NCBI GenBank assembly: GCA_010202845.1
Contig: CP047921.1
Span: 330,001 to 362,000 of the forward strand
Direction: 5' to 3'
Source of the DNA: Candidatus Saccharibacteria bacterium oral taxon 488
Lineage (GTDB): Bacteria; Patescibacteriota; Saccharimonadia; Saccharimonadales; Saccharimonadaceae
Length of the DNA stretch: 32,000 nt
Below are positions 3,114 to 29,851 of this stretch, one piece after another; the stretch's first letter is position 1; each line of letters starts with the position of its first letter. Under the pieces are notes generated by a model. That model worked only from the letters and a program-made list of their open reading frames with translations, ran no database searches and was not told where the DNA came from. Position numbers and translations under genes: made by a program.

Positions 3114-4058
3114 TTATAAACTAGTGGCAATTTTGGTGATCTGCTCGCTTGACAATGCCCCGCCGAGGGTGATTTGGTAGAGGACGCCGCCATTGATCCA
3201 GCTGGCCGTCCGGTCGGTGCTGTAAATAGTCAGACCGCCGGCGGTGGTGGTCTGGACGTCGCCGCCGTCGGCGGTCAGGGTCTCTTTGAGGGCGGCGGAA
3301 TTGAGCGAACTTTTTTGCTGGGTGATGGTGTAAGATTGGCCGCCGTCAGCGTAGGCGAATTTCATGCGGACTTCCCCGCTCTTGAAGGTAATCGGGCCGC
3401 TGAGGGCATAGCCGGTCGGTCGATAGCCGGGGTATTTGGCGTTAACACCAGATTGGATGGCGGCGATACGGGTGGAGATGTTAGGCATGCCAAGATACGT
3501 AAAATAACCACCGATCAGCATGATAGCCAAGCCGACGGAGGCGACTTGCAGCCAGCGACCGATGCGGCTCTTTGGTTTTTTAGCGCGGCGCGGTGCTTTT
3601 TGCGGCGTGGTTGCACGCTGCAGGGCTTCGGTGATGGCTTCATTTTTGAGAACGGCGGCTGGCTTGGGTGCGAGGATCGCCGGATGCTGTTTGGCTGGAG
3701 CTTGGTTTGGCTGGATGATACGAGTCGAGTGATGAGGCGGTGTGGTCGGACTGCGGCGAGTTGCAGTTCGGGTGGTCTGATGAGGCTGCTCGGCAGCACG
3801 AGCCTGGGCGCGCACGACAGTCGGGTGCGGTTCGGCTGGACGGTCGCGTTTGGTTGGTTGTGGCGGGATGGTTGGCGCGGACGGTGCAAATTTATTGACA
3901 TGAACGCTCATCGGGACTGTAGTGTTTCGTGTGACGTCAGGACGGCTGGCCAGGCGACGCTTGGCGTGCGACGGCGCAGCAACATGGCGGCGACTGAGCG
4001 TCGTTGACTTTTGACCGGCAGTTTTATGGACGGTTTTATGGATGATTTGTTTGTTCAT
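3114..4058 (-). CDS. hypothetical single-pass membrane protein with Pro-rich spacer and DUF4367-like C-terminal domain
   Basis: 314-aa ORF, with GAGGGG upstream of ATG 4058. It has a basic N-terminus, a P/T/A-rich region, a TM helix (WLQVASVGLAIMLIGGYFTYLGM) and a beta-rich C-terminal domain of about 110 aa (GYRPTGYALSGPITF...WINGGVLYQI). The domain name is recalled from memory only. Confidence 0.6.
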   Translation of the reverse strand: MNKQIIHKTVHKTAGQKSTTLSRRHVAAPSHAKRRLASRPDVTRNTTVPMSVHVNKFAPSAPTIPPQPTKRDRPAEPHPTVVRAQARAAEQPHQTTRTATRRSPTTPPHHSTRIIQPNQAPAKQHPAILAPKPAAVLKNEAITEALQRATTPQKAPRRAKKPKSRIGRWLQVASVGLAIMLIGGYFTYLGMPNISTRIAAIQSGVNAKYPGYRPTGYALSGPITFKSGEVRMKFAYADGGQSYTITQQKSSLNSAALKETLTADGGDVQTTTAGGLTIYSTDRTASWINGGVLYQITLGGALSSEQITKIATSL

Positions 4059-10265: not shown

Positions 10266-11072
10266 TTACTTGGCAACTGATGTATTGTCGCGTAATTTGA
10301 CCATGTTTTGGTACACTTCGTCAAAGGTCAGCCCTGATTCGTGGATGAGGCTGGCTAGGTCTTTGCCGACATAGCGGAAGTGCCAGGCTTCGCTGGCGAT
10401 GCCGGTGATTTTTTCCTTGCCCTTCGGATAGCGCAGAATAAAACCGTATTCGTGGGCGTGGGTGGCGAGCCAGCCGGCGGTTTTTGGATCAAGTGCGCAG
10501 TCGCTGAAGCGGGCCTTGCATTTCTCGGAAAAGCTGGTTAAGTCAACCGCTAGGCCCAGCTGATGCTCGCTGTGGCCAGGCTTGGCGACATATTCGTCAG
10601 TGTGGGCGGCGCCGTTTTTGGCGGTGGTTTCAGTGCGGACTTTGGCTTGGGCGGTGCCGGAGCGGTAAGCGCTAGAGACGAGGACCGGCAGCTTGGCTTT
10701 GGTTGCAGCCTGACGTAGTTGCTCCAGTGGCTCTTTAACCATCGGTTGCACGCGCTTATCATCTATCCACGCTGGTGTGCCATCAGTAATATCAGTCAGC
10801 GGCGGCTCAAAGGCTGGGTCGATGCCTTGCTTGCCCGAGACATAAGACCAGATTTTCCCGGTTTGTAAATACTTCCACGACGGAAAGGTCAAGTCGCGAT
10901 TGGTGCGGTCAAGGCGGATGGTGACCGGCTGAAAATTATACAGCGGCGAATTAGCGACCGACGCCGACGTTTGGTTGACGAGCTGCGTGCCGCCATTGAT
11001 CATCAGTAGTGTTAGTGTCGTCCAGGCCGCCAAAACCATGGCCACGACTGCGCGCCCCACCCCGTGCTTCAT
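10266..11072 (-). CDS. D-alanyl-D-alanine carboxypeptidase, peptidase M15B (VanY-like), paralogue 2
   Basis: Motifs SAYRSGTAQ, PGHSEHQLGLAVDL and EAWHFRYVG supply the Zn ligands of VanY/M15B. An N-terminal signal/TM segment is present. Confidence 0.85.
   Translation of the reverse strand: MKHGVGRAVVAMVLAAWTTLTLLMINGGTQLVNQTSASVANSPLYNFQPVTIRLDRTNRDLTFPSWKYLQTGKIWSYVSGKQGIDPAFEPPLTDITDGTPAWIDDKRVQPMVKEPLEQLRQAATKAKLPVLVSSAYRSGTAQAKVRTETTAKNGAAHTDEYVAKPGHSEHQLGLAVDLTSFSEKCKARFSDCALDPKTAGWLATHAHEYGFILRYPKGKEKITGIASEAWHFRYVGKDLASLIHESGLTFDEVYQNMVKLRDNTSVAK
10415..10460 (-). repeat. 46-nt tract 43/46 identical to 11228-11273 (29-nt perfect run) inside the VanY paralogues
   Basis: I aligned the two tracts directly. 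ccttgcccttcggatagcgcagaataaaaccgtattcgtgggcgtg compares with ccttacccttcgggtagcgcagaataaaaccgtattcgtgggcatg. Confidence 0.85.
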
Positions 11073-11957
11073 TTATTGTGTTCCTCGCTGTTTGAGTTTG
11101 GTCATTGCTTCTTCAATATACGACCAAGCCTCCTCCATCGTCAAGCCCGACTGATGCAGAGCGCCCGCTAGTTCCCGCCCGACGTAGCGAAAATGCCATG
11201 GCTCGTATTGATAGCCGGTGATCGATTCCTTACCCTTCGGGTAGCGCAGAATAAAACCGTATTCGTGGGCATGAGCGGCTAGCCATTTGCCGGCGGTGGT
11301 TCGTTCGAAACAATCATCCACCCAGCAGGTTTGATCGGCGCCAGCAAAGTCGACGGCTAGGCCTGATTGGTGTTCGCTGTGGCCGGGGCGCGAGCTAAAG
11401 CGGCTGGCTTCGGCCTCGCCATGTCGGCGGGCGTAGCTGGCAAAGAGTGAGGCTTGGGTGGCGTAACTGCGGTAGCCTGAGCCGACGCGGAGGGTGACGC
11501 CGGCGGCGCGGGCAGCGGCGACTAATTTCTCGAGATCAGGCATGAGGACGGCGCGGAGCGAGCGCTCATCCTGACCGCGGCCGGGTAATGTCGGCACGCT
11601 GACGAGGCGGAGGTCGCTGGGCTGATAGCGAGGATTGGCGAAGGCTCGGGATTTGTTAGCAATTTTCCAGAGATCGGCGTCATCGGCACTGTTGACAATG
11701 CGAGCGGGGATCGGTGTAGCGTTTGGCAGAGCGATGGTAATTGGTGCAGCTGGTGCTGGAGTTTTCGGGCTGTCGGGATCTTTTTCTTTGGGTGTCGGCG
11801 CGGGCTGCTCTTGGCTGATAGGCTGCTGGGCAGTGGTACGCGGCGGGTTGAAATGACGGAGGGTGAAATAAGTCGCTACAGCACTACTGGCGATGATCAG
11901 CACGGCACCCAGGCCAAGGAGCAGCTTACGTTCCCTCAAGCGTTTGGTAATTTTCAT
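11073..11957 (-). CDS. D-alanyl-D-alanine carboxypeptidase, peptidase M15B (VanY-like), paralogue 1
   Basis: Motifs SGYRSYATQ, PGHSEHQSGLAVDF and EPWHFRYVG, plus an N-terminal TM and a Pro-rich linker. Its stop abuts the start of the next paralogue with no gap. Confidence 0.85.
   Translation of the reverse strand: MKITKRLRERKLLLGLGAVLIIASSAVATYFTLRHFNPPRTTAQQPISQEQPAPTPKEKDPDSPKTPAPAAPITIALPNATPIPARIVNSADDADLWKIANKSRAFANPRYQPSDLRLVSVPTLPGRGQDERSLRAVLMPDLEKLVAAARAAGVTLRVGSGYRSYATQASLFASYARRHGEAEASRFSSRPGHSEHQSGLAVDFAGADQTCWVDDCFERTTAGKWLAAHAHEYGFILRYPKGKESITGYQYEPWHFRYVGRELAGALHQSGLTMEEAWSYIEEAMTKLKQRGTQ
11228..11273 (-). repeat. partner of the 10415-10460 tract
   Basis: See 10415-10460. Both tracts encode AHEYGFILRYPKGKE. 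Confidence 0.85.
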
Positions 11958-15839: not shown

Positions 15840-16271
15840 TTAGCTAGAAGAGGATTGGTCTGTCTGGGCTGCGTCCCGTTGCATCTGATCTAGAAGCGAG
15901 AGAAGTCTTTCATTGGGATCTTCCGGTGTGGTAATTTCCTCTTTTGCTAGAATCATCATACTAACCTGTAGCTTATTCATGACATCTGCGATTTCTCCCA
16001 GGGCTGCTTGCTTTTGCGACACATCTAATTCATCATCATGATATATGCTATCAACACGATCCAGAGACTCGTAATATAATTGGCGAAGTAACCCTGACTT
16101 GTCTGATGTAAAAATAAGCGGAAGGGGGCCTGGAAGTCCTGCTTCATTTAACAACACTTGACGCGCTAAGCGATTCTTTCCTTCTGTATTGTCTAGTAGT
16201 CCAGCTAGCTCACTTTCGAGGATGTTTTGGATAGCTTCAATAACAATCTCTGCGTAAACGAGGCATAGCAT
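15840..16271 (-). CDS. hypothetical helical protein (island gene D)
   Basis: 143-aa ORF in a low-GC block, predicted all-helical by eye, with an acidic C-terminus. I recognise no motif. Confidence 0.6.
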   Translation of the reverse strand: MLCLVYAEIVIEAIQNILESELAGLLDNTEGKNRLARQVLLNEAGLPGPLPLIFTSDKSGLLRQLYYESLDRVDSIYHDDELDVSQKQAALGEIADVMNKLQVSMMILAKEEITTPEDPNERLLSLLDQMQRDAAQTDQSSSS

Positions 16272-16278
16272 TGCCTGC

Positions 16279-16470
16279 TCAGGGTTTGGAGGGCTTAGAA
16301 TTTTGCTGTCCGATCACATCAAGTTTGTCTGGGGCGTCGACTATGTAAATTTCGTTTGGATTAACTATATCAAGTTCGTGCTCAGACGGTGCACCAACGC
16401 TAGTGCCGCTGGCTGGGTATCTTTTATCTGTTGGCTCTTGTGATGCTCGTGGTGCCGTCTCTATATTCAT
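16279..16470 (-). CDS. hypothetical small acidic protein (island gene C)
   Basis: 63-aa ORF, 7 nt upstream of gene D on the same strand. The composition looks disordered. Confidence 0.4.
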   Translation of the reverse strand: MNIETAPRASQEPTDKRYPASGTSVGAPSEHELDIVNPNEIYIVDAPDKLDVIGQQNSKPSKP

Positions 16471-16507
16471 ACTTTTATACCAATAAATTTCGATTTGATT
16501 ATTAGCG

Positions 16508-17077
16508 CTAGCCTGCTAGTTTAGTTAATTCGTCCTCAACGTCGTTTACTTTTGCTAACAGCTTAGTCCTTTCTGTGAGTAACCTCGTTAGCTTACTACG
16601 GCGTTTTTCCATTTCTGCTTCTACCGCAGAAAATTCTTTAAATTGTTTTATAACGCTGTCATTATATTCGAGTTTCTTGGAGTAGTCATCCAGTGTTGTT
16701 AGTAGATACTCAAGGTTGCTGTCCAGTTTCTCTTTGGGGAGTCGTTCTCTAACTACAGCAATATAGGCAAATACAGATGTGGCCGTATCTTGGATATCAT
16801 TGTACAACTCTTCGCTGTATTTACCGGTAGCTACATTGAACTCTATAAGAGCGTTTTGTGCCGCCTCACGGTCGCCAGTTGCTGCCACTTTGGCAACGTA
16901 GCCAATAACATTGAGACTATCGGCAAAACTCAAGACGTAATTAGGGTCGTCTCTCTTGTCGACCTCTTTACACTTATCTCGTATGGCGTTAATTGTTGGG
17001 TGTGTTTGCCCCATGTCGTCAGTGAGACGAGGGATCTCCTGCATGCGTGCTGGGCGGTTTTTACTCATGGTTTCCAT
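16508..17077 (-). CDS. hypothetical protein with C-terminal coiled coil (island gene B)
   Basis: 189-aa ORF. The C-terminal 50 aa are heptad-like (EAEMEKRRSKLTRLLTERTKLLAKVNDVEDELTKL). It shares an R-x-R-[IL]-P-x-[DE]-x-[IL]-x-x-N motif with gene A. Confidence 0.7.
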   Translation of the reverse strand: METMSKNRPARMQEIPRLTDDMGQTHPTINAIRDKCKEVDKRDDPNYVLSFADSLNVIGYVAKVAATGDREAAQNALIEFNVATGKYSEELYNDIQDTATSVFAYIAVVRERLPKEKLDSNLEYLLTTLDDYSKKLEYNDSVIKQFKEFSAVEAEMEKRRSKLTRLLTERTKLLAKVNDVEDELTKLAG

Positions 17078-17085
17078 AGTTTTTA

Positions 17086-17094
17086 ACTATAACA
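17086..17094 (-). promoter_or_regulatory. extended -10 promoter TGTTATAGT, 8 nt from ATG 17077
   Basis: The reverse complement of 17086-17094 reads TGTTATAGT. Confidence 0.45.
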
Positions 17095-17208
17095 TAAAAT
17101 AATTTAAAAAGCAATAACAACGTATGTATCGAAGCATGCCGTATGCTGCACTTTGTAGCTGAAAGCATCGGGTATTATGTAATTGGCGTACACGTGTCTA
17201 CCGAATAT

Positions 17209-17688
17209 TTAGTGATCATCAACCGTCAAAGGTGGTTCATCCGTCAGAGCGCTGACTCGCACGGCGGCTACTATTCCTAGTTGTTTGATACCACTTGACC
17301 ACTGATCTTTCCAAGCACGATTCTTTCTATTGGTCCTGTCTTTGGCCTTATGTATATCAACAATCAGCTGCAGCATCGTGTTGTTGAGCGTACCTTCAAT
17401 TAGCTCGCCGTCAGCATCACGATCACAAACGAAGCCCTCAATCGCCTCGTTCATATTCTTGGTAATTTCATCCGTTGGGATACGGTGTCTGGCGTACAGG
17501 ATGAGGGCTGTCATGCGCTTTAGGTTGTTTATCGTAATTTTTCGGGATTCATGTATTTCTGGATCACCTAACGCGTCTTTGGCTTGAGCAAAGATATCAT
17601 CGAGGCGCGACTCATATCCTTTCATGATGGTCTCTATCGCTTCCGGCGTTTTTGCCGTGTTTGTTGGCGGTTTGTCGTGTATACCCAT
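17209..17688 (-). CDS. hypothetical helical protein (island gene A)
   Basis: 159-aa ORF in the low-GC block. It contains ARHRIPTDEITKNMNEAI, to compare with VRERLPKEKLDSNLEYLL in gene B. Confidence 0.65.
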   Translation of the reverse strand: MGIHDKPPTNTAKTPEAIETIMKGYESRLDDIFAQAKDALGDPEIHESRKITINNLKRMTALILYARHRIPTDEITKNMNEAIEGFVCDRDADGELIEGTLNNTMLQLIVDIHKAKDRTNRKNRAWKDQWSSGIKQLGIVAAVRVSALTDEPPLTVDDH

Positions 17689-17792: not shown

Positions 17793-19787
17793 ATGATAGC
17801 CGACATTCACATCACCGAGAAGAGTTTTGGCGACAAGACGTTGATGCGTGACGTCAAGTTTAGCGTGGACGACGGCGAGAAAATTGGCGTGGTCGGTCGC
17901 AATGGCGTTGGTAAGTCGACGCTGTTTGGGGTTTTGGCGGGCACGGATACCGACTACACCGGTGAGGTGATTTTCCGGCGCGGCATCACCGTGGCCAGTA
18001 CGGCGCAGGAGCATCATGGTCTGGGCGATCAGACGGTGCTGAGCTACATTTTGGCGGGGCTACCGGAATATGCGAGCTTAAAGAAAATTATTGATGAATA
18101 TCCCGAGACCATGGGCGATAATATGCGCAAAATCGAGGAGTATACTCAGGCGCTGGAGCGATTTGACCAGAAAGGGTTTTATCAGATTGAGGAGAAGATT
18201 GGGCGGGAGCTTGATAATTTTCAGCTGAGCGGGTGTGGCGAGCGGCCGCTTGGTTCCCTGTCGGGTGGTCAGAAGCGGCTGGTGGAGATCGTGAAGATTA
18301 TGCATGCGGAGGCGCATTTGGCGCTGATTGACGAGCCGACCAATCACATGGATTATGTGGCCAAGCAGCAGTTCATCGACTGGATGAGTTCGCAGCCGCG
18401 CCAGGCCATGCTGATCATCACCCACGACCGCGATGTGCTGGGTCGGGTGGATCGAATTGTCGAACTCAAAGACGGCCGAGCGGTCAGCTACCGCGGTAAT
18501 TATGACGCTTACCTCAAGCAAAACGCTCAGGCGACGGCGGCGGGCATGAATAATTTTGAGCAGGTCGAGAAGCGGATAACCAACCTCAAACAAAAGGTGC
18601 TGGATTATCAGCGGCTGAAGGAAAAGTCGCGCAACCCCGGTACCATCCAGAAGTTTAAGCGGCTGGAAAATGAAGCACGGGCGGAGCTGGCGGAATTATC
18701 AGAGATGGACAAGCCGACATTTTGGATCGATAAGGAGTCGGCTGGCCAGCTTGATTATAAATCGGCTGAGCGCTACGGCAAGTTCAAGGCGCGTAATATT
18801 CGCCTATCGATGAAAGACGCGGCCAGTCGCAGCCAGCATGTGTTGGTGCGGGTTGAGGATGCGGCAGTTGGCGTTGGCGAGCGGATATTGTTTGAAGGGG
18901 TAAATATTGATCTGCGTGAGGGCGAAGCGGTGGAGCTGCGCGGCCGCAATGGCGCTGGCAAGACGACGCTGATTCGGATGTTGCTGGGGCAGCGGCGAGG
19001 TTCGTACTCCAGCCTCTCTGATTCGCGGCAGAATTCGGCTCGCCCGTCTCGCAAACATCTTTCTCTTCAGGCCGGCGCGCCGCCAACTGATTCAGCTGGC
19101 GCTCTTGGCACGCCTTTGCCGGAAAGGCAAAGCCTTCAGAAAAAGAGTTTGACGAGCCAGCTCGAATGCACTCAGAAGAAATCTGAGATGCCACTCGCAT
19201 CCAACGCGTCGACTGCGGCACCTCCTGCGCTGGAGGCTGTGGAGCATTCGCGAATAGCGAGTGCTCCAGCCGAACGCTCGCGTAGTATCTCCAGTGGAGA
19301 TGCAAGCGAAAAGAGTACTCCAGCGCAGGAGCGTGGCGCTGGCGTCACCCCTATCCTCTACTCCGGCAACCTCTTCCTCGACCCGCAGGTGCGGGTGGGC
19401 GTGTACGAGCAAGAAATTGATGAGCGGTATTTGGCGGATCCATTGGAGGCAGCGATCGAGAAATTGTACCTCAGCCGCGACCTGCCGATTTCTGATACCA
19501 AAATTCGCCAATTACTAGCTGATTATCTGTTCACCGAAGCGGATCGGATGACGCCACTGGCGCGCCTGTCGGGTGGTCAGAAGGCACGCTTTCAGATCAT
19601 TGCCATGCTGGCGAATGACCCGCAGCTATTGATTTTGGACGAGCCGACCAACCACCTTGACTTACCGAGCATCGAGGAGTTAGAGACGGCACTGGCGAAA
19701 TATTCTGGCGCCATTTTGTATGTCAGCCACGATAACTATTTCCGCCAAGCAATCGGTGGCGAAGTCGTACAAATCGGTGCAGTATAA
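17793..19787 (+). CDS. ABC-F family ATPase (two ABC cassettes, no TMD) carrying an in-frame insertion of about 118 aa in NBD2
   Basis: Walker A motifs are GRNGVGKST and GRNGAGKTT. Signature motifs are LSGGQKRL and LSGGQKAR. Walker B motifs are LALIDEPTNHMD and LLILDEPTNHLD. An inter-domain linker is present. Low-complexity insert at about 18990-19346. Confidence 0.9.
   Translation: MIADIHITEKSFGDKTLMRDVKFSVDDGEKIGVVGRNGVGKSTLFGVLAGTDTDYTGEVIFRRGITVASTAQEHHGLGDQTVLSYILAGLPEYASLKKIIDEYPETMGDNMRKIEEYTQALERFDQKGFYQIEEKIGRELDNFQLSGCGERPLGSLSGGQKRLVEIVKIMHAEAHLALIDEPTNHMDYVAKQQFIDWMSSQPRQAMLIITHDRDVLGRVDRIVELKDGRAVSYRGNYDAYLKQNAQATAAGMNNFEQVEKRITNLKQKVLDYQRLKEKSRNPGTIQKFKRLENEARAELAELSEMDKPTFWIDKESAGQLDYKSAERYGKFKARNIRLSMKDAASRSQHVLVRVEDAAVGVGERILFEGVNIDLREGEAVELRGRNGAGKTTLIRMLLGQRRGSYSSLSDSRQNSARPSRKHLSLQAGAPPTDSAGALGTPLPERQSLQKKSLTSQLECTQKKSEMPLASNASTAAPPALEAVEHSRIASAPAERSRSISSGDASEKSTPAQERGAGVTPILYSGNLFLDPQVRVGVYEQEIDERYLADPLEAAIEKLYLSRDLPISDTKIRQLLADYLFTEADRMTPLARLSGGQKARFQIIAMLANDPQLLILDEPTNHLDLPSIEELETALAKYSGAILYVSHDNYFRQAIGGEVVQIGAV
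19171..19342 (+). repeat. intragenic hairpin-rich repeat element, copy 1 (in ABC-F, sense orientation)
   Basis: By direct comparison, 19267-19342 is the exact reverse complement of 28908-28983 (76/76). Recognisable homology continues to about 19171, matching about 29082. Internal inverted arms lie at 19222-19235 and 19318-19331. Confidence 0.9.
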
Positions 19788-20147: not shown

Positions 20148-20173
20148 AACTTCCCTCCTTATGGCTTTTCTCT

Positions 20174-20182
20174 ATTGTAGCA
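20174..20182 (-). promoter_or_regulatory. extended -10 promoter TGCTACAAT with 26-nt SD-containing leader
   Basis: The reverse complement of 20174-20182 reads TGCTACAAT. The leader contains AAGGAGGG, in contrast to the leaderless genes. Confidence 0.55.
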
Positions 20183-20210
20183 TAAGTACCGACATTCCGG
20201 CAATGCTAAC

Positions 20211-20447
20211 CTAGTCTCGGGACGCGCGACTCGTTAAGTGCCAGCCGTCACACCCCCGGCAATAATACACGTCTAATTCTAGCTTTGGTGACACTAGCTC
20301 CTGCGTATCAGCCGCTCGCCTGGCGATCTGCTCGGTGGCAAAGCGGCGCTTGCGCCGGCAGGTGTCGTGATCGGTAGTTGTCAGCGTCGGCTTGACGAGC
20401 GTTCGGGCCGATTTTGGTTGGTTTTTCGGGTAATTTCGGCGTGGCAT
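20211..20447 (-). CDS. hypothetical small basic protein with C-terminal CxxC...WH zinc-ribbon-like motif
   Basis: 78 aa, with the motif YYCRGCDGWHLTS. It has its own -10 box. Confidence 0.5.
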   Translation of the reverse strand: MPRRNYPKNQPKSARTLVKPTLTTTDHDTCRRKRRFATEQIARRAADTQELVSPKLELDVYYCRGCDGWHLTSRASRD

Positions 20448-20456
20448 CTTGTCAAG

Positions 20457-20465
20457 AGTATAGCA
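20457..20465 (-). promoter_or_regulatory. extended -10 promoter TGCTATACT, 9 nt from ATG 20447
   Basis: The reverse complement of 20457-20465 reads TGCTATACT. Confidence 0.5.
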
Positions 20466-20468
20466 TGT

Positions 20469-20477
20469 TGCTATAGT
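20469..20477 (+). promoter_or_regulatory. extended -10 promoter TGCTATAGT of the ATP synthase operon, 9 nt from ATG 20487
   Basis: Reads TGCTATAGT. It is back-to-back with the divergent box 4 nt away. Confidence 0.55.
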
Positions 20478-20486
20478 GACAGAGTA

Positions 20487-20759
20487 ATGGCTGAGAGACC
20501 AAGTGTTGAGAATGGTGTAACGACAGCGACGGAAGTGGCGGCGGCTCGGGTTATTCTCGGGACGATTGGCGACACAACGTGGCGGATGTTTGTACCGAGC
20601 ATCGGCTGTACGCTACTAGGTGTATGGCTGGATAGCGTATTTGGCTTGAAGCCGTGGCTGATGTTTGCTGGCGTGGTACTTGGCTTTTTGGGCGCGTACC
20701 TGCTGGTGAATAAGCAGTTGGGACGCGTGAAACGAAAAAAGGAGCGTAAAAATATATGA
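20487..20759 (+). CDS. AtpZ/AtpI-like small membrane protein of the F-ATPase operon
   Basis: Start trimmed to ATG 20487. 90 aa with two TM helices and the pattern GVWLDSVFGLKPWLMFAGVVLGFLG. ATGA overlap with atpB. Confidence 0.65.
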   Translation: MAERPSVENGVTTATEVAAARVILGTIGDTTWRMFVPSIGCTLLGVWLDSVFGLKPWLMFAGVVLGFLGAYLLVNKQLGRVKRKKERKNI

Positions 20760-27797: not shown

Positions 27798-28595
27798 TTA
27801 CAGACCTGCCAACAAATCATTGGTGATATGGTATATATTATTTTGTTGCTTTTTTGATAATGCGCCAGCAACTAGCGATAAGTATGGGTCAAAAAAATAT
27901 GTCTTAATACACTCACTACTTGGCATTGAAGTAATATAATCAGGTAATGTTCCCATATACCAATCCATATCATCAATAATGCCGCGACAGCTTTTGTCGA
28001 AATAAGAGGAAGTAAGGTCTATTGCTCGCACGTCCCCTGTCTTTGTATGAAATGCGGTATTTTTAATTTGTGCGTCACCGTGGGCAACTCCTGATTTATG
28101 TAGTTTCGCGAGTGTTGTTGCTCCTATGAGTAGGACGCGTTGTATTTTTTCAGGATCATCTGTACGATCCGTAATTGTGTCACAACTTACGACATCACCC
28201 TCAAACATTGATATTGTATGTATAGAATTCCTGTCTGGTAGAAATCCCAGCGGCTGATATGGCCTAATGTACCCTTCACTAGTAAGCCGCTGTGTAATAC
28301 AGAATTCCGAGAGCGCAGAGGCGGCATTGCAGTGAGGCTTAAGAGCTACAGGTATGTCCGTATTACCTGTTGATATCTTTCCGAATCTGACACCACTCGT
28401 GGTGTCATGTCGTCCTATAGAATACTCTTCAATGGGAGTAAATGTCAATTTTTGACCACAGCTGACATTACTTAGCGGTGTATCATATGCTACAAGGAGT
28501 TGTCCGTTAGGCGTATTCTCTATCGCTGTACGCAGTTTTCGCTTTGGTTGACTTTGAGGGAGTGTGTCGTATACGCGTATCTCTGAAGGTAACAT
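27798..28595 (-). CDS. atypical protein-kinase-like fold protein (RIO/Kdo/APH-like)
   Basis: Motifs are VALKP (VAIK-type Lys), HGDAQIKN (HxDxxxxN catalytic loop) and AIDLT (DFG-equivalent Asp). Start is ATG 28595, 2 nt after the dus TGA, or GTG 28601 overlapping it (GTGA). GC is very low (about 33% on a sampled line). Confidence 0.7.
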   Translation of the reverse strand: MLPSEIRVYDTLPQSQPKRKLRTAIENTPNGQLLVAYDTPLSNVSCGQKLTFTPIEEYSIGRHDTTSGVRFGKISTGNTDIPVALKPHCNAASALSEFCITQRLTSEGYIRPYQPLGFLPDRNSIHTISMFEGDVVSCDTITDRTDDPEKIQRVLLIGATTLAKLHKSGVAHGDAQIKNTAFHTKTGDVRAIDLTSSYFDKSCRGIIDDMDWYMGTLPDYITSMPSSECIKTYFFDPYLSLVAGALSKKQQNNIYHITNDLLAGL

Positions 28596-28597
28596 TA

Positions 28598-29851
28598 TCA
28601 CATTATATCATAATATTTGTATTTTTCAAGTATCTGGCGGACGTCGTCGGTGCTGGTGGTGTGCATCAACTGTTCGCGCAGTTCCTTGGCGCCATCAAAG
28701 TCGCGGATGTAGATTTTGAAGAAGCGTTTGAGGGTTTCGAAGGGGCGGCCGAGAGTTGGTTGATAGCGGTCAAAGAGATCGAGGTGGTAGTGTAATAAGG
28801 CGATTAGTTCAGTTTTACGGGTGGTAATGGATAGTTCTGCTCCCTCGGAGTGTTCTTTACGGATGGCTTCGCTCGCCTCTCGGACATCGTCAGAAAAGCC
28901 GGGGTCACCAGCGCCACGCTCCTGCGCTGGAGTACTCTTTTCGCTTGCATCTCCACTGGAGATACTACGCGAGCGTTCGGCTGAAACGTCCGCTCCTCGC
29001 GAACGTTTCACAGCCTCCAGCGCAGAAGGTGTCGCTGGCGCTGGTGTATCTGACGTGAGTGGCGTCTCAGAAAAAATCTGGGATTGTCTCGGGTCCCGGA
29101 TTGTTTTATGAGATACCGCTCGAGATGCTCGAAAACAAAACGGATCGCTGAAAATGCCCCGCCCGATCATGACGCCGTTGATGCCGGGATGTTGACGGAC
29201 TAGCTCTAGACCATGGGTTCGGTTGCGGATATCGCCGTTGATAGTTAGTAAAGTTTGTGGGGCGATTTCATCGCGTAGTTTGATGATGTCGTTGATGAGC
29301 TCGTAATGCGCTGGGACTTTACTCATTTCTTTTTTGGTGCGTAGGTGGATGGTTAGGTTGGCGAGGTTTTGCGTGAGTAAGGTGCTAAGCCATTCGCGCC
29401 ATTCGTCGATATAAGTATAGCCCAGCCTGGTTTTAACGCTGACTGGCAATCCAGCAGTTTTAGCAGCGGCAATGGCGGCGACCGCTACGTCGGGCTGGCG
29501 GATCAGTGCCGCTCCCCCGCTTTTGATGGCGGATTTGGCGGGACAACCCATGTTGATGTCAATGCCGTCAAAGCCGAGCTCCATGCAGTGAGCGGCAAAT
29601 TGTTCCATGTCGCCCGGCTCACCGCCCCAGATTTGGGCGACCAGCGGATGCTCATCGTCGGTCTTGACGAGCCGCCCAGCGATGGCCTTGTCGCCAGCGT
29701 GCACCCAGCCAGTTGCATTGGCAAACTCGGTGAAAAACACGTCGGGCGCGCCCGCCTGTTTCACGACATGGCGAAACACCACGTCCGTGACGGCTTCCAT
29801 GGGTGCCAAGATGAAAAATGGCTGCGGTAGATTGTCCCAAAATGATGTCAT
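28598..29851 (-). CDS. dus: tRNA-dihydrouridine synthase (Dus family) carrying an in-frame insertion
   Basis: Motifs are ILAPMEAVTDVVFR, GFDGIDINMGCP, TIHLRTKKE, INGDI and GVMIGRG. A low-complexity insert lies between the TIM barrel (…DPFCF) and the C-terminal helical domain (…ELIALLHYHLDLF). Confidence 0.9.
   Translation of the reverse strand: MTSFWDNLPQPFFILAPMEAVTDVVFRHVVKQAGAPDVFFTEFANATGWVHAGDKAIAGRLVKTDDEHPLVAQIWGGEPGDMEQFAAHCMELGFDGIDINMGCPAKSAIKSGGAALIRQPDVAVAAIAAAKTAGLPVSVKTRLGYTYIDEWREWLSTLLTQNLANLTIHLRTKKEMSKVPAHYELINDIIKLRDEIAPQTLLTINGDIRNRTHGLELVRQHPGINGVMIGRGIFSDPFCFRASRAVSHKTIRDPRQSQIFSETPLTSDTPAPATPSALEAVKRSRGADVSAERSRSISSGDASEKSTPAQERGAGDPGFSDDVREASEAIRKEHSEGAELSITTRKTELIALLHYHLDLFDRYQPTLGRPFETLKRFFKIYIRDFDGAKELREQLMHTTSTDDVRQILEKYKYYDIM
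28908..29082 (-). repeat. intragenic hairpin-rich repeat element, copy 2 (in dus, sense orientation)
   Basis: 28908-28983 is the exact reverse complement of 19267-19342. Homology extends to about 29082. Arms lie at 28919-28932 and 29015-29028 (13/14). Confidence 0.9.

Follow-up and report, generated by a model that had tools for sequence, protein, structure and literature searches.

Why should the gene of a conserved ATPase carry some 120 additional codons of palindromic DNA within its second nucleotide-binding domain (NBD2)? The question is raised by a 32,000-nucleotide stretch of DNA from Candidatus Saccharibacteria bacterium oral taxon 488 (contig CP047921.1, positions 330,001 to 362,000), here called the window, in which the plus-strand open reading frame (ORF) at 17793–19787 encodes an ABC-F family ATPase of 664 amino acids (aa). 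The protein matches the Pfam families ABC_tran (twice) and ABC_tran_Xtn as well as the NCBIfam ABC-F models, and it is 100% identical to NCBI QHU93756.1. Our analysis suggests that the additional DNA probably belongs to a non-autonomous, mosaic palindromic element that resembles the Rickettsia palindromic elements (RPEs) in behaviour and is tolerated in protein loops of essential genes.

The additional segment lies behind the NBD2 Walker A motif (GRNGAGKTTLIRMLLGQ), and conserved sequence picks up again at PILYSGNLFLDPQVRVGVYEQE. A phmmer alignment to E. coli YheS (PDB 9nlh_H) paired residues 348–400 with chain residues 309–361 and residues 524–652 with chain residues 366–491, leaving residues 401–523 (18993–19361, plus strand) opposite four residues of YheS. 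The excess of about 120 codons is located between the NBD2 Walker A helix and the next beta-strand. The reading frame is open along the entire insert, which as a whole folds better than shuffled sequences (z −5.3). From this comparison the segment is judged to be a true insertion, in line with the preliminary description of this DNA, which had claimed an in-frame insertion after Walker A; the hairpins, 14-nt inverted arms and 10-nt direct repeat listed there were likewise all found in place. Among them is a hairpin, ctttgcc/ggcaaag, near 19114–19132 in the 5′ part of the insert. The direct repeat, at 19004 and 19315, has a chance expectation of about 0.06 by our estimate, so it is marginally unexpected, and its first copy sits in a module that is absent from many alleles.

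A second copy, which had been noted in the gene of a tRNA-dihydrouridine synthase (Dus), proved to be real. This gene, dus, lies on the minus strand at 28598–29851 and encodes 417 aa; the Pfam Dus domain covers residues 14–252, and homology to Dus structures in PDB stops near residue 246. The 140 nt of positions 19210–19349 are 88% identical to 28901–29040 on the other strand, 76 nt of them in an unbroken identical run, and nhmmer widens the shared part to 19176–19359 (about 180 nt). Both copies share one reading frame (...ALEAV...AERSRSISSGDASEKSTPAQERGAG). The full-length element in dus (28874–29113, minus strand) consists of a left module, a 122-nt core and a right extension, and adds 80 aa (SHKTIRDP...DDVREA) in frame to the linker after the TIM barrel. 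Its core (28913–29034, minus strand; type A, form 2) has a folding energy of −68 kcal/mol (z −7.2) and scores 151 bits with a covariance model. The left module (29066–29113, minus strand) comprises 48 nt, TCTCATAAAA...TTTTTTCTGAG, and reads SHKTIRDPRQSQIFSE; in dus of other genomes it is reverse-complemented yet in frame, and reads SQKKSGLALAGPGLF. In the fold of the dus copy the outer helix is lengthened to about 26 bp, and the left module forms a separate hairpin. As to the genomic setting, the cumulative GC skew climbs over the whole window (1–32000), which makes the plus strand probably the leading strand; the two copies have opposite orientations to replication, and both are sense to their host gene. 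Directly downstream of dus, a 267-aa minus-strand ORF (27798–28601) without a Pfam family overlaps the dus stop codon with its start by 4 nt.

The part common to all copies is a 122-nt core folding into a three-helix junction, defined by alignment and covariation. In ABC-F it occupies 19216–19337 (plus strand) and scores 149 bits with the covariance model. The core is co-linear in all copies. Its outer helix, P1, comprises 14 bp and can be extended to about 26 bp; the 5′ arm (CTCCTGCGCTGGAG, 19222–19235) forms one half of a perfect inverted pair and reads PPALE, and the 3′ arm (CTCCAGCGCAGGAG, 19318–19331) reads TPAQE and repeats the 5′ arm both in inverted (14/14) and in direct (12/14) sense. 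Both arms lie in the same codon phase. P2 is an 11-bp hairpin with the loop GAATA at 19241–19267 (an 11/12-bp hairpin at 19240–19268), and P3 is an 8-bp hairpin (gtatctcc/ggagatgc, loop AGT) at 19285–19303 with the 4-bp extension P3a (19278–19281 with 19306–19309). The most conserved block, formed by J2/3, P3 and J3/1 (19267–19316), codes for AERSRSISSGDASEKST, with conservation at every codon position. All of these features are read on the plus strand.

Several lines of evidence support this fold. The minimum free energy of the ABC-F core is −75.8 kcal/mol, as compared with −43.1 ± 3.1 kcal/mol for shuffled sequences (z −10.5). Across 31 distinct copies, 94.9% of the cells pair, against 38–56% when the partners are slid; ten pairs are altered on both sides, and none of 500 shuffles matched the observed covariation score. 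RNAalifold gave the same three helices de novo. Among 108 distinct copies, the arms of P2 occur in five or more fully compensated versions, and covariation is seen in P1 and P3 too. Moreover, the forward strand contains 270 G·U pairs and 219 unpaired cells, as against 77 and 412 on the complement. Since the G·U pairs are concentrated on the forward strand, it appears that one given strand folds on its own, either as RNA or as single-stranded DNA. No Rfam family matched the element at the gathering threshold or at E ≤ 10, and scans for promoters and terminators in the element and in a copy between relA and ppa gave nothing above background.

The element is dispersed in unrelated genes, and the expectation of further genomic copies was thus borne out. 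In a scan with one genome for every GTDB species 30 hits were obtained, and in a metagenome scan, whose pattern was valid for both subtypes, A and B, 88; together with the window and orthologue loci these make 125 copies. All hits of both scans were Candidatus Saccharibacteria or oral-type contigs, and the 118 collection hits fall into six locus types: ABC-F, Dus, TopA, Der, LeuRS and the convergent relA–ppa spacer. ABC-F accounts for 38 copies (23 sense, subtype A; 15 antisense, subtype B) and Dus for 17 (14 of subtype A and three of subtype B, all sense). Sense copies of subtype A are found in Der (20) and TopA (17), sense copies of subtype B in LeuRS (17), and ten copies of subtype B lie in the relA–ppa spacer, sense to relA and beginning 17 nt past the relA stop codon; the remaining six, of subtype A, are cross-gene chimeras. 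The host identities exceed curated cutoffs (TopA, TIGR01051, 618 bits; Der, TIGR03594, 443 bits; LeuRS, TIGR00396, 952 bits). In all 116 genic copies the host frame is open; the 98 forward copies share one frame, and the 18 reverse copies share one frame. Neither nhmmer, run on 1.04 Mb of Saccharibacteria DNA, nor the covariance model, run on the window, brought up a further copy. When 1.84 billion representative proteins were searched exhaustively with HMMER, the element peptide turned up in only three, all cross-gene chimeras, which indicates that the family is phylogenetically very narrow; a word-indexed protein search with a profile of the element peptide returned only seven short ORFs and missed the known hosts. 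The family is restricted to a shallow clade of Candidatus Saccharibacteria from the human mouth, namely oral taxon 488 and its relatives, and has about six loci per genome of about 0.85 Mb.

Two kinds of database entry trace back to these copies. Chimeric genes joined at the repeat occur in public metagenome assemblies and protein databases, as represented by P0128, P0129, P0130, L017 (around 984–1196) and six of the 125 loci. They combine ABC-F on the left with TopA on the right, or Der on the left with Dus, ABC-F or TopA on the right, and are most likely short-read assembly joins across the repeat of about 180 nt. The non-coding copy between relA and ppa has been called as hypothetical proteins of 80–105 aa (L036, 6001–6279; P0122–P0126, P0133). 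Because their C-termini are mutually frameshifted, these are probably spurious ORFs.

The hosts appear to accommodate the element at tolerant positions. The ABC-F insert replaces the four-residue loop after the Walker A helix in the YheS alignment; the Der insert falls in the turn between beta2 and beta3, between G2 and G3 of GTPase domain 1, in an alignment to EngA; and the Dus insert is aligned to the linker after the TIM barrel. In LeuRS the insert lies in a variable stretch of the anticodon-binding domain, and in TopA between two conserved beta-strand segments. These positions would plausibly be surface loops or linkers. They were taken from alignments to solved structures; an AlphaFold2 model of ABC-F from an 18-sequence alignment reached a mean pLDDT of 32 and was discarded. 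The open host frame in all genic copies makes translation of the element almost certain, and each genic copy would contribute a low-complexity peptide of 40–120 residues; AERSRSISSGDASEK is one peptide of the predicted insert translation.

Conservation of the element lies at the nucleotide level, not at the peptide level. The host flanks of ABC-F diverge by 0.21–0.25 at third codon positions and by 0.02–0.03 at first and second positions, whereas the core diverges by 0.056 and 0.087, respectively, and therefore shows no protein-level pattern. Neutral divergence, judged from the flank third positions, is estimated at roughly 0.4. The residues encoded by P2 change wholesale (EHSRIAS, KRSRGAD, KCSRIAD) in step with base-pair compensation, and types A and B are about 20% different outside the conserved junction and P3. 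In pattern-retrieved loci the constancy of the central block is in part a circular result, because the search patterns lie inside the core, and the comparison was repeated on sets retrieved by whole-protein homology. In these sets the central block (AERSR.ISSGD.SE...) had an amino acid diversity of 0.055 among 80 ABC-F alleles and 0.004 among 105 LeuRS alleles, similar to that of the host proteins, and for the residues encoded by P1 and P2 the variability was 2 to 20 times higher. Either selection or continual homogenisation thus acts on the nucleotides of the junction and P3, and compensation preserves the helices.

Comparison of ABC-F and LeuRS alleles showed that, among orthologues of about 90% identity, the element varies in presence, length and orientation at fixed sites. 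ABC-F orthologues of at least 85% identity range from 620 to 710 aa, and the length variation lies wholly within the insert; the polymorphism looked for in the orthologue alignment thus concerns both presence and length. In the 620-aa alleles, exactly 96 nt (32 codons) are deleted between the quasi-palindromic 14-mers, with the P1 5′ arm as one boundary, and one hybrid 14-mer remains. Other ABC-F alleles carry a reversed element of about 80% identity whose frame is also open and which reads SPLEIPRERSAETS; the element is antisense in 28 of 120 ABC-F clusters. Among LeuRS orthologues whose proteins diverge by no more than 11%, there are empty alleles (839 and 841 aa), forward ones (864–903 aa) and reverse ones (871 and 889 aa), the oral taxon 488 genome carrying a forward allele. 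The forward and reverse alleles have common outer flanks, TACAT(TG/CA)...TGATGTA, which are themselves inverted repeats, and one allele classed as empty resembles a remnant, with the base of the stem kept and 99 nt missing. When the insert was left out of the LeuRS tree, the reverse alleles of 889 aa came out nested among forward alleles, and the empty alleles grouped with the short reverse allele. Three segments were seen both ways at one site: the ABC-F core, the LeuRS core and the dus left module.

The ABC-F insert is judged to be composite, as had been proposed, with the multi-copy element in its 3′ part of about 180 nt and palindromic modules specific to ABC-F in its 5′ part of about 190 nt. 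The copy of the multi-copy element (19176–19359, plus strand, extent by nhmmer) is of type A, form 1, and sense. Module X (18987–19036, plus strand), GQRRGSYSSLSDSRQNS in place of ASGDV with a net gain of 12 codons, is allele-specific, being present in some orthologues and absent from others, and blastn matches of other ABC-F alleles begin at 19037, just past it. Module Y (19037–19175, plus strand) is a 139-nt imperfect palindrome with a long hairpin of its own, which blastn found at ABC-F loci only; in other alleles either the 48-nt left module or module Z, which is unrelated, stands in its place. Modules X, Y and Z had no copies away from this ABC-F site in blastn searches of the collected Saccharibacteria DNA. 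The junction of module Y with the shared element is marked on inspection by a small hairpin, CTCAGA-AGAAA-TCTGAG (19171–19187, plus strand), the loop of which runs in the opposite sense in the dus copy. Exchange of modules is also seen elsewhere: a 77-nt module just 3′ of the type-B relA–ppa copy sits reversed and in frame within der of some genomes, which indicates that flank modules travel independently of the core. This module was located at L025 246–322, L030 5023–5099 and L036 6166–6242, and reads SLSDKSIALRTALPDAFDMEETVGGRASADTT.

We therefore favour, as the probable explanation, an RPE-like mobile element without genes of its own. It would spread by insertion, or by copy-to-copy recombination, of a folded single strand, and would survive only on landing in phase within a tolerant surface loop. 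Deletions mediated by the hairpin arms (96 or 99 nt, whole codons) may reshape it afterwards, as may inversion or re-insertion together with gene conversion between copies. Modules X and Y could be additional palindromic segments accreted at the same ABC-F hotspot, making up the 5′ part of the insert. Several observations weigh against this explanation. The filled and empty alleles of LeuRS and ABC-F displayed no clear target-site duplication, although the arms are quasi-direct repeats and obscure the junctions, and no transposase or recombinase was found within the 32-kb window. The copy number is low, and the same six loci are occupied throughout the clade, a pattern closer to vertical inheritance than to continuing transposition. 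The central block is as tightly conserved as the essential hosts themselves, also in the independently retrieved sets; such tightness exceeds that of a decaying selfish insert and points to function or to continual homogenisation. Furthermore, the scans needed exact matches within the core, so that strongly diverged copies or other families would escape them, and the translation of the insert is itself read from frame conservation.

Some of these observations would be accounted for if the host made use of the fold. The element might be a functional structured RNA or single-stranded DNA motif, a three-way junction in growth-linked mRNAs (topA, der, leuS, dus and abcF) and in the relA 3′ region, offering a protein or RNase a common site of recognition or regulation and kept by host purifying selection. 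We regard this as unlikely, even though all three helices carry compensatory changes, the G·U bias favours the strand that is sense at five of the six loci, the junction and P3 are conserved at every codon position even between subtypes some 20% apart elsewhere, this conservation holds in the homology-retrieved sets, and the relA-downstream copy stands in sense orientation 17 nt past the stop codon. Many strains carry the ABC-F or LeuRS copy in antisense (28 of the 120 ABC-F clusters), and some lack the element or its interior with no sign of gene loss. Because such antisense, deleted and empty alleles are frequent, an essential role is argued against. The Rfam comparison and the promoter and terminator scans offered nothing to such a motif, a −76 kcal/mol structure within a coding region would be an odd design for a regulator, and selection for foldability could equally stem from the needs of mobilisation or recombination. 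Slightly less likely still, in our view, is a three-way-junction motif under purifying selection as a common site co-regulating topA, der, leuS, dus, abcF and the relA 3′ region, with an interior that flips in place as the gene stays open.

Explanations at the protein level, or from processing, have far less to recommend them. A lineage-specific protein module (a disordered linker, tag or interaction motif) under protein-level selection and spread by domain shuffling would explain why the same peptide (…AERSRSISSGD.SEKSTP…) occurs in four or five proteins, with the forward copies in one frame and the central peptide well conserved. It is nevertheless highly improbable: the core has no codon-position signature (0.056 at third against 0.087 at first and second positions, as opposed to 0.21–0.25 and 0.02–0.03 in the flanks), the P2-encoded residues switch along with base-pair compensation, reverse copies give the unrelated peptide SPLEIPRERSAETS at the same sites, a non-coding copy exists in the relA–ppa spacer, and no Pfam domain was matched. 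Such a module is already largely refuted, and the segment is not the conserved protein-level linker that the preliminary description had raised as an alternative. We think even less of an intervening sequence that is removed after transcription or translation to leave canonical mature proteins; the insert does interrupt conserved domains and would be highly structured as RNA, but the frame is kept free of stop codons in every genic copy and length variant, which splicing would make unnecessary. A self-splicing group I or II intron was rejected, since no Rfam intron family matched at gathering or permissive thresholds and the frame is always kept. An intein was rejected as well: neither ABC-F nor Dus matched a Hint or intein family of Pfam, and the ends of the inserts have no conserved nucleophiles and differ between hosts. 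Inserts of 40–120 aa are also smaller than known inteins. A diversity-generating retroelement does not fit, since the differences are paired compensatory changes involving all base types and the window has no reverse transcriptase. The other alternative raised earlier, an assembly or sequencing artefact or chimera, deserves hardly any credence. Cross-gene chimeras joined at the repeat do occur in public metagenome assemblies, but the allele in the window is identical to the NCBI protein from a complete 853-kb genome, and the same gene–element–gene layouts recur in more than 100 independent assemblies with the host genes intact on both sides.

The favoured element is best compared with the RPEs. 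Described by Ogata et al. (2000, Science 290:347), these are short palindromic repeats found in frame in unrelated housekeeping genes, and also between genes, at fold-tolerant positions; 44 insertions are reported in R. conorii, and their mobilisation mechanism is unknown (PMC10969869). The likeness extends to palindromes of about 100–240 nt without coding capacity of their own, in-frame insertion that adds a peptide, a reduced-genome obligate symbiont as host, and additional intergenic copies (PMC10969869). The Saccharibacteria element is a dispersed repeat of 125 copies with a stable hairpin (core −75.8 kcal/mol, z −10.5), and it lies in frame in five unrelated host genes, with all 116 genic copies open. 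It occupies, however, about six loci rather than tens, against the 44 given for R. conorii in that account. The RPE-like character put forward in the preliminary description holds for behaviour but not for copy number. The hosts belong to the Patescibacteria, or candidate phyla radiation (CPR), and not to the Alphaproteobacteria, and we liken the elements by behaviour rather than by sequence without claiming membership. A three-way junction with covariation, forward, reverse, deleted and empty alleles at one site, and module exchange characterise the Saccharibacteria element; we did not find them documented for RPEs in the texts consulted.

Other palindromic elements share single traits with it. 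Prokaryotic MITEs (transposable elements of the miniature inverted-repeat type) with intragenic in-frame copies include intragenic ERIC, Coxiella QMITE1 and Anabaena MITEs (PMC10969869, PMC5896051). Like them, the present element is small and non-autonomous, has terminal inverted arms (14 bp perfect, up to about 26 bp imperfect) and is occasionally fused in frame to a host ORF. It differs in that no clear target-site duplication was seen at the LeuRS and ABC-F junctions and no transposase in the 32-kb window, in that its copies are nearly all intragenic and in essential genes, and in that its arms are not simple terminal inverted repeats but the foot of a conserved fold. REP/BIME sequences of enterobacteria and pseudomonads are imperfect palindromes and short motifs combined in mosaics (PMC3733652). 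The mosaic of palindromes, the alternating orientations and the strand-specific single-strand fold recall what is described there, whereas the REP units of that account are 20–40 bp, extragenic and high-copy, with a conserved GTAG/CGTC tag. Our unit measures 110–240 nt, occurs in few copies, 116 of 125 of them intragenic, and is preceded at P3 by GTAG in type A only, the motif not being conserved in type B. REP/BIME sequences are mobilised by RAYT transposases.

Palindromic DNA that is translated inside protein-coding genes is also known from the PARCELs of Mollicutes, tandem amphipathic repeats in surface proteins (PMC2996958), and from mitochondrial genes of Nematomorpha, in which both arms of long perfect hairpins code for protein (PMC6649704); neither, as these sources describe them, is a dispersed three-helix element of bacterial housekeeping genes. 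With invertible segments such as invertons and shufflons the element shares a coding segment that is bounded by inverted repeats, occurs in both orientations and yields alternative peptides, but the window encodes no recombinase. Because the forward and reverse sequences are about 15–20% apart, these alleles are not products of rapid switching. A full-text literature search returned nothing joining Saccharibacteria, Patescibacteria or CPR with in-frame palindromic elements or MITEs. What appears to be new here, on sequence evidence, is RPE-like behaviour in a distant phylum, a three-helix architecture supported by covariation, and polymorphism of orientation and presence at fixed codons.

Our analysis also bears on the wider question of selfish DNA within protein-coding genes, a phenomenon that for 25 years has essentially been known from Rickettsia. 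The present element would be a second, independent and structurally better-defined case, in a reduced-genome obligate symbiont of a very distant phylum. This suggests that in-gene palindromic DNA is a recurrent outcome of genome reduction, in which little intergenic space is left and essential genes dominate. Human oral metagenomes are rich in Saccharibacteria of the oral taxon 488 type, and related strains can be grown in co-culture, which makes for a more tractable system. Because forward, reverse, deleted and empty alleles occur naturally at one and the same codon, direct tests are possible of movement and of an RNA as opposed to a DNA fold, and of how 40–120 extra residues are tolerated in enzymes of four kinds (ATPase, GTPase, topoisomerase and tRNA synthetase). 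In practice, the repeat yields cross-gene chimeric contigs and proteins in public databases of proteins and metagenome-assembled genomes, and is an issue for the quality of such genomes.

Between smpB and the ABC-F gene, the window carries three minus-strand ORFs (143, 189 and 159 aa; 15840–17688) without a Pfam match and with a G+C content of 0.43–0.47, as against about 0.55 for the window. Related strains hold different ORFs at this position (383 aa in L001; 196 and 248 aa in L004), which marks 15840–17688 as a strain-variable islet. Between the glutaredoxin gene and the ATP synthase operon, L004 (12330–14802) carries ORFs for a 741-aa RCC1/WD40/ricin-B-lectin protein and for 79 aa, which are present in some related strains and absent from the window (compare 20150–20750). 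A GC-rich (0.73) coding palindrome at 3227–3282 gave a marginal match to the covariance model (15.7 bits, E 0.026) and appears unrelated to the element. Finally, two tandem paralogues of VanY (D-Ala-D-Ala carboxypeptidase) occupy 10266–11957 of the window, and share stretches of 72 and 41 nt that are 78–88% identical and lie about 810 nt apart.

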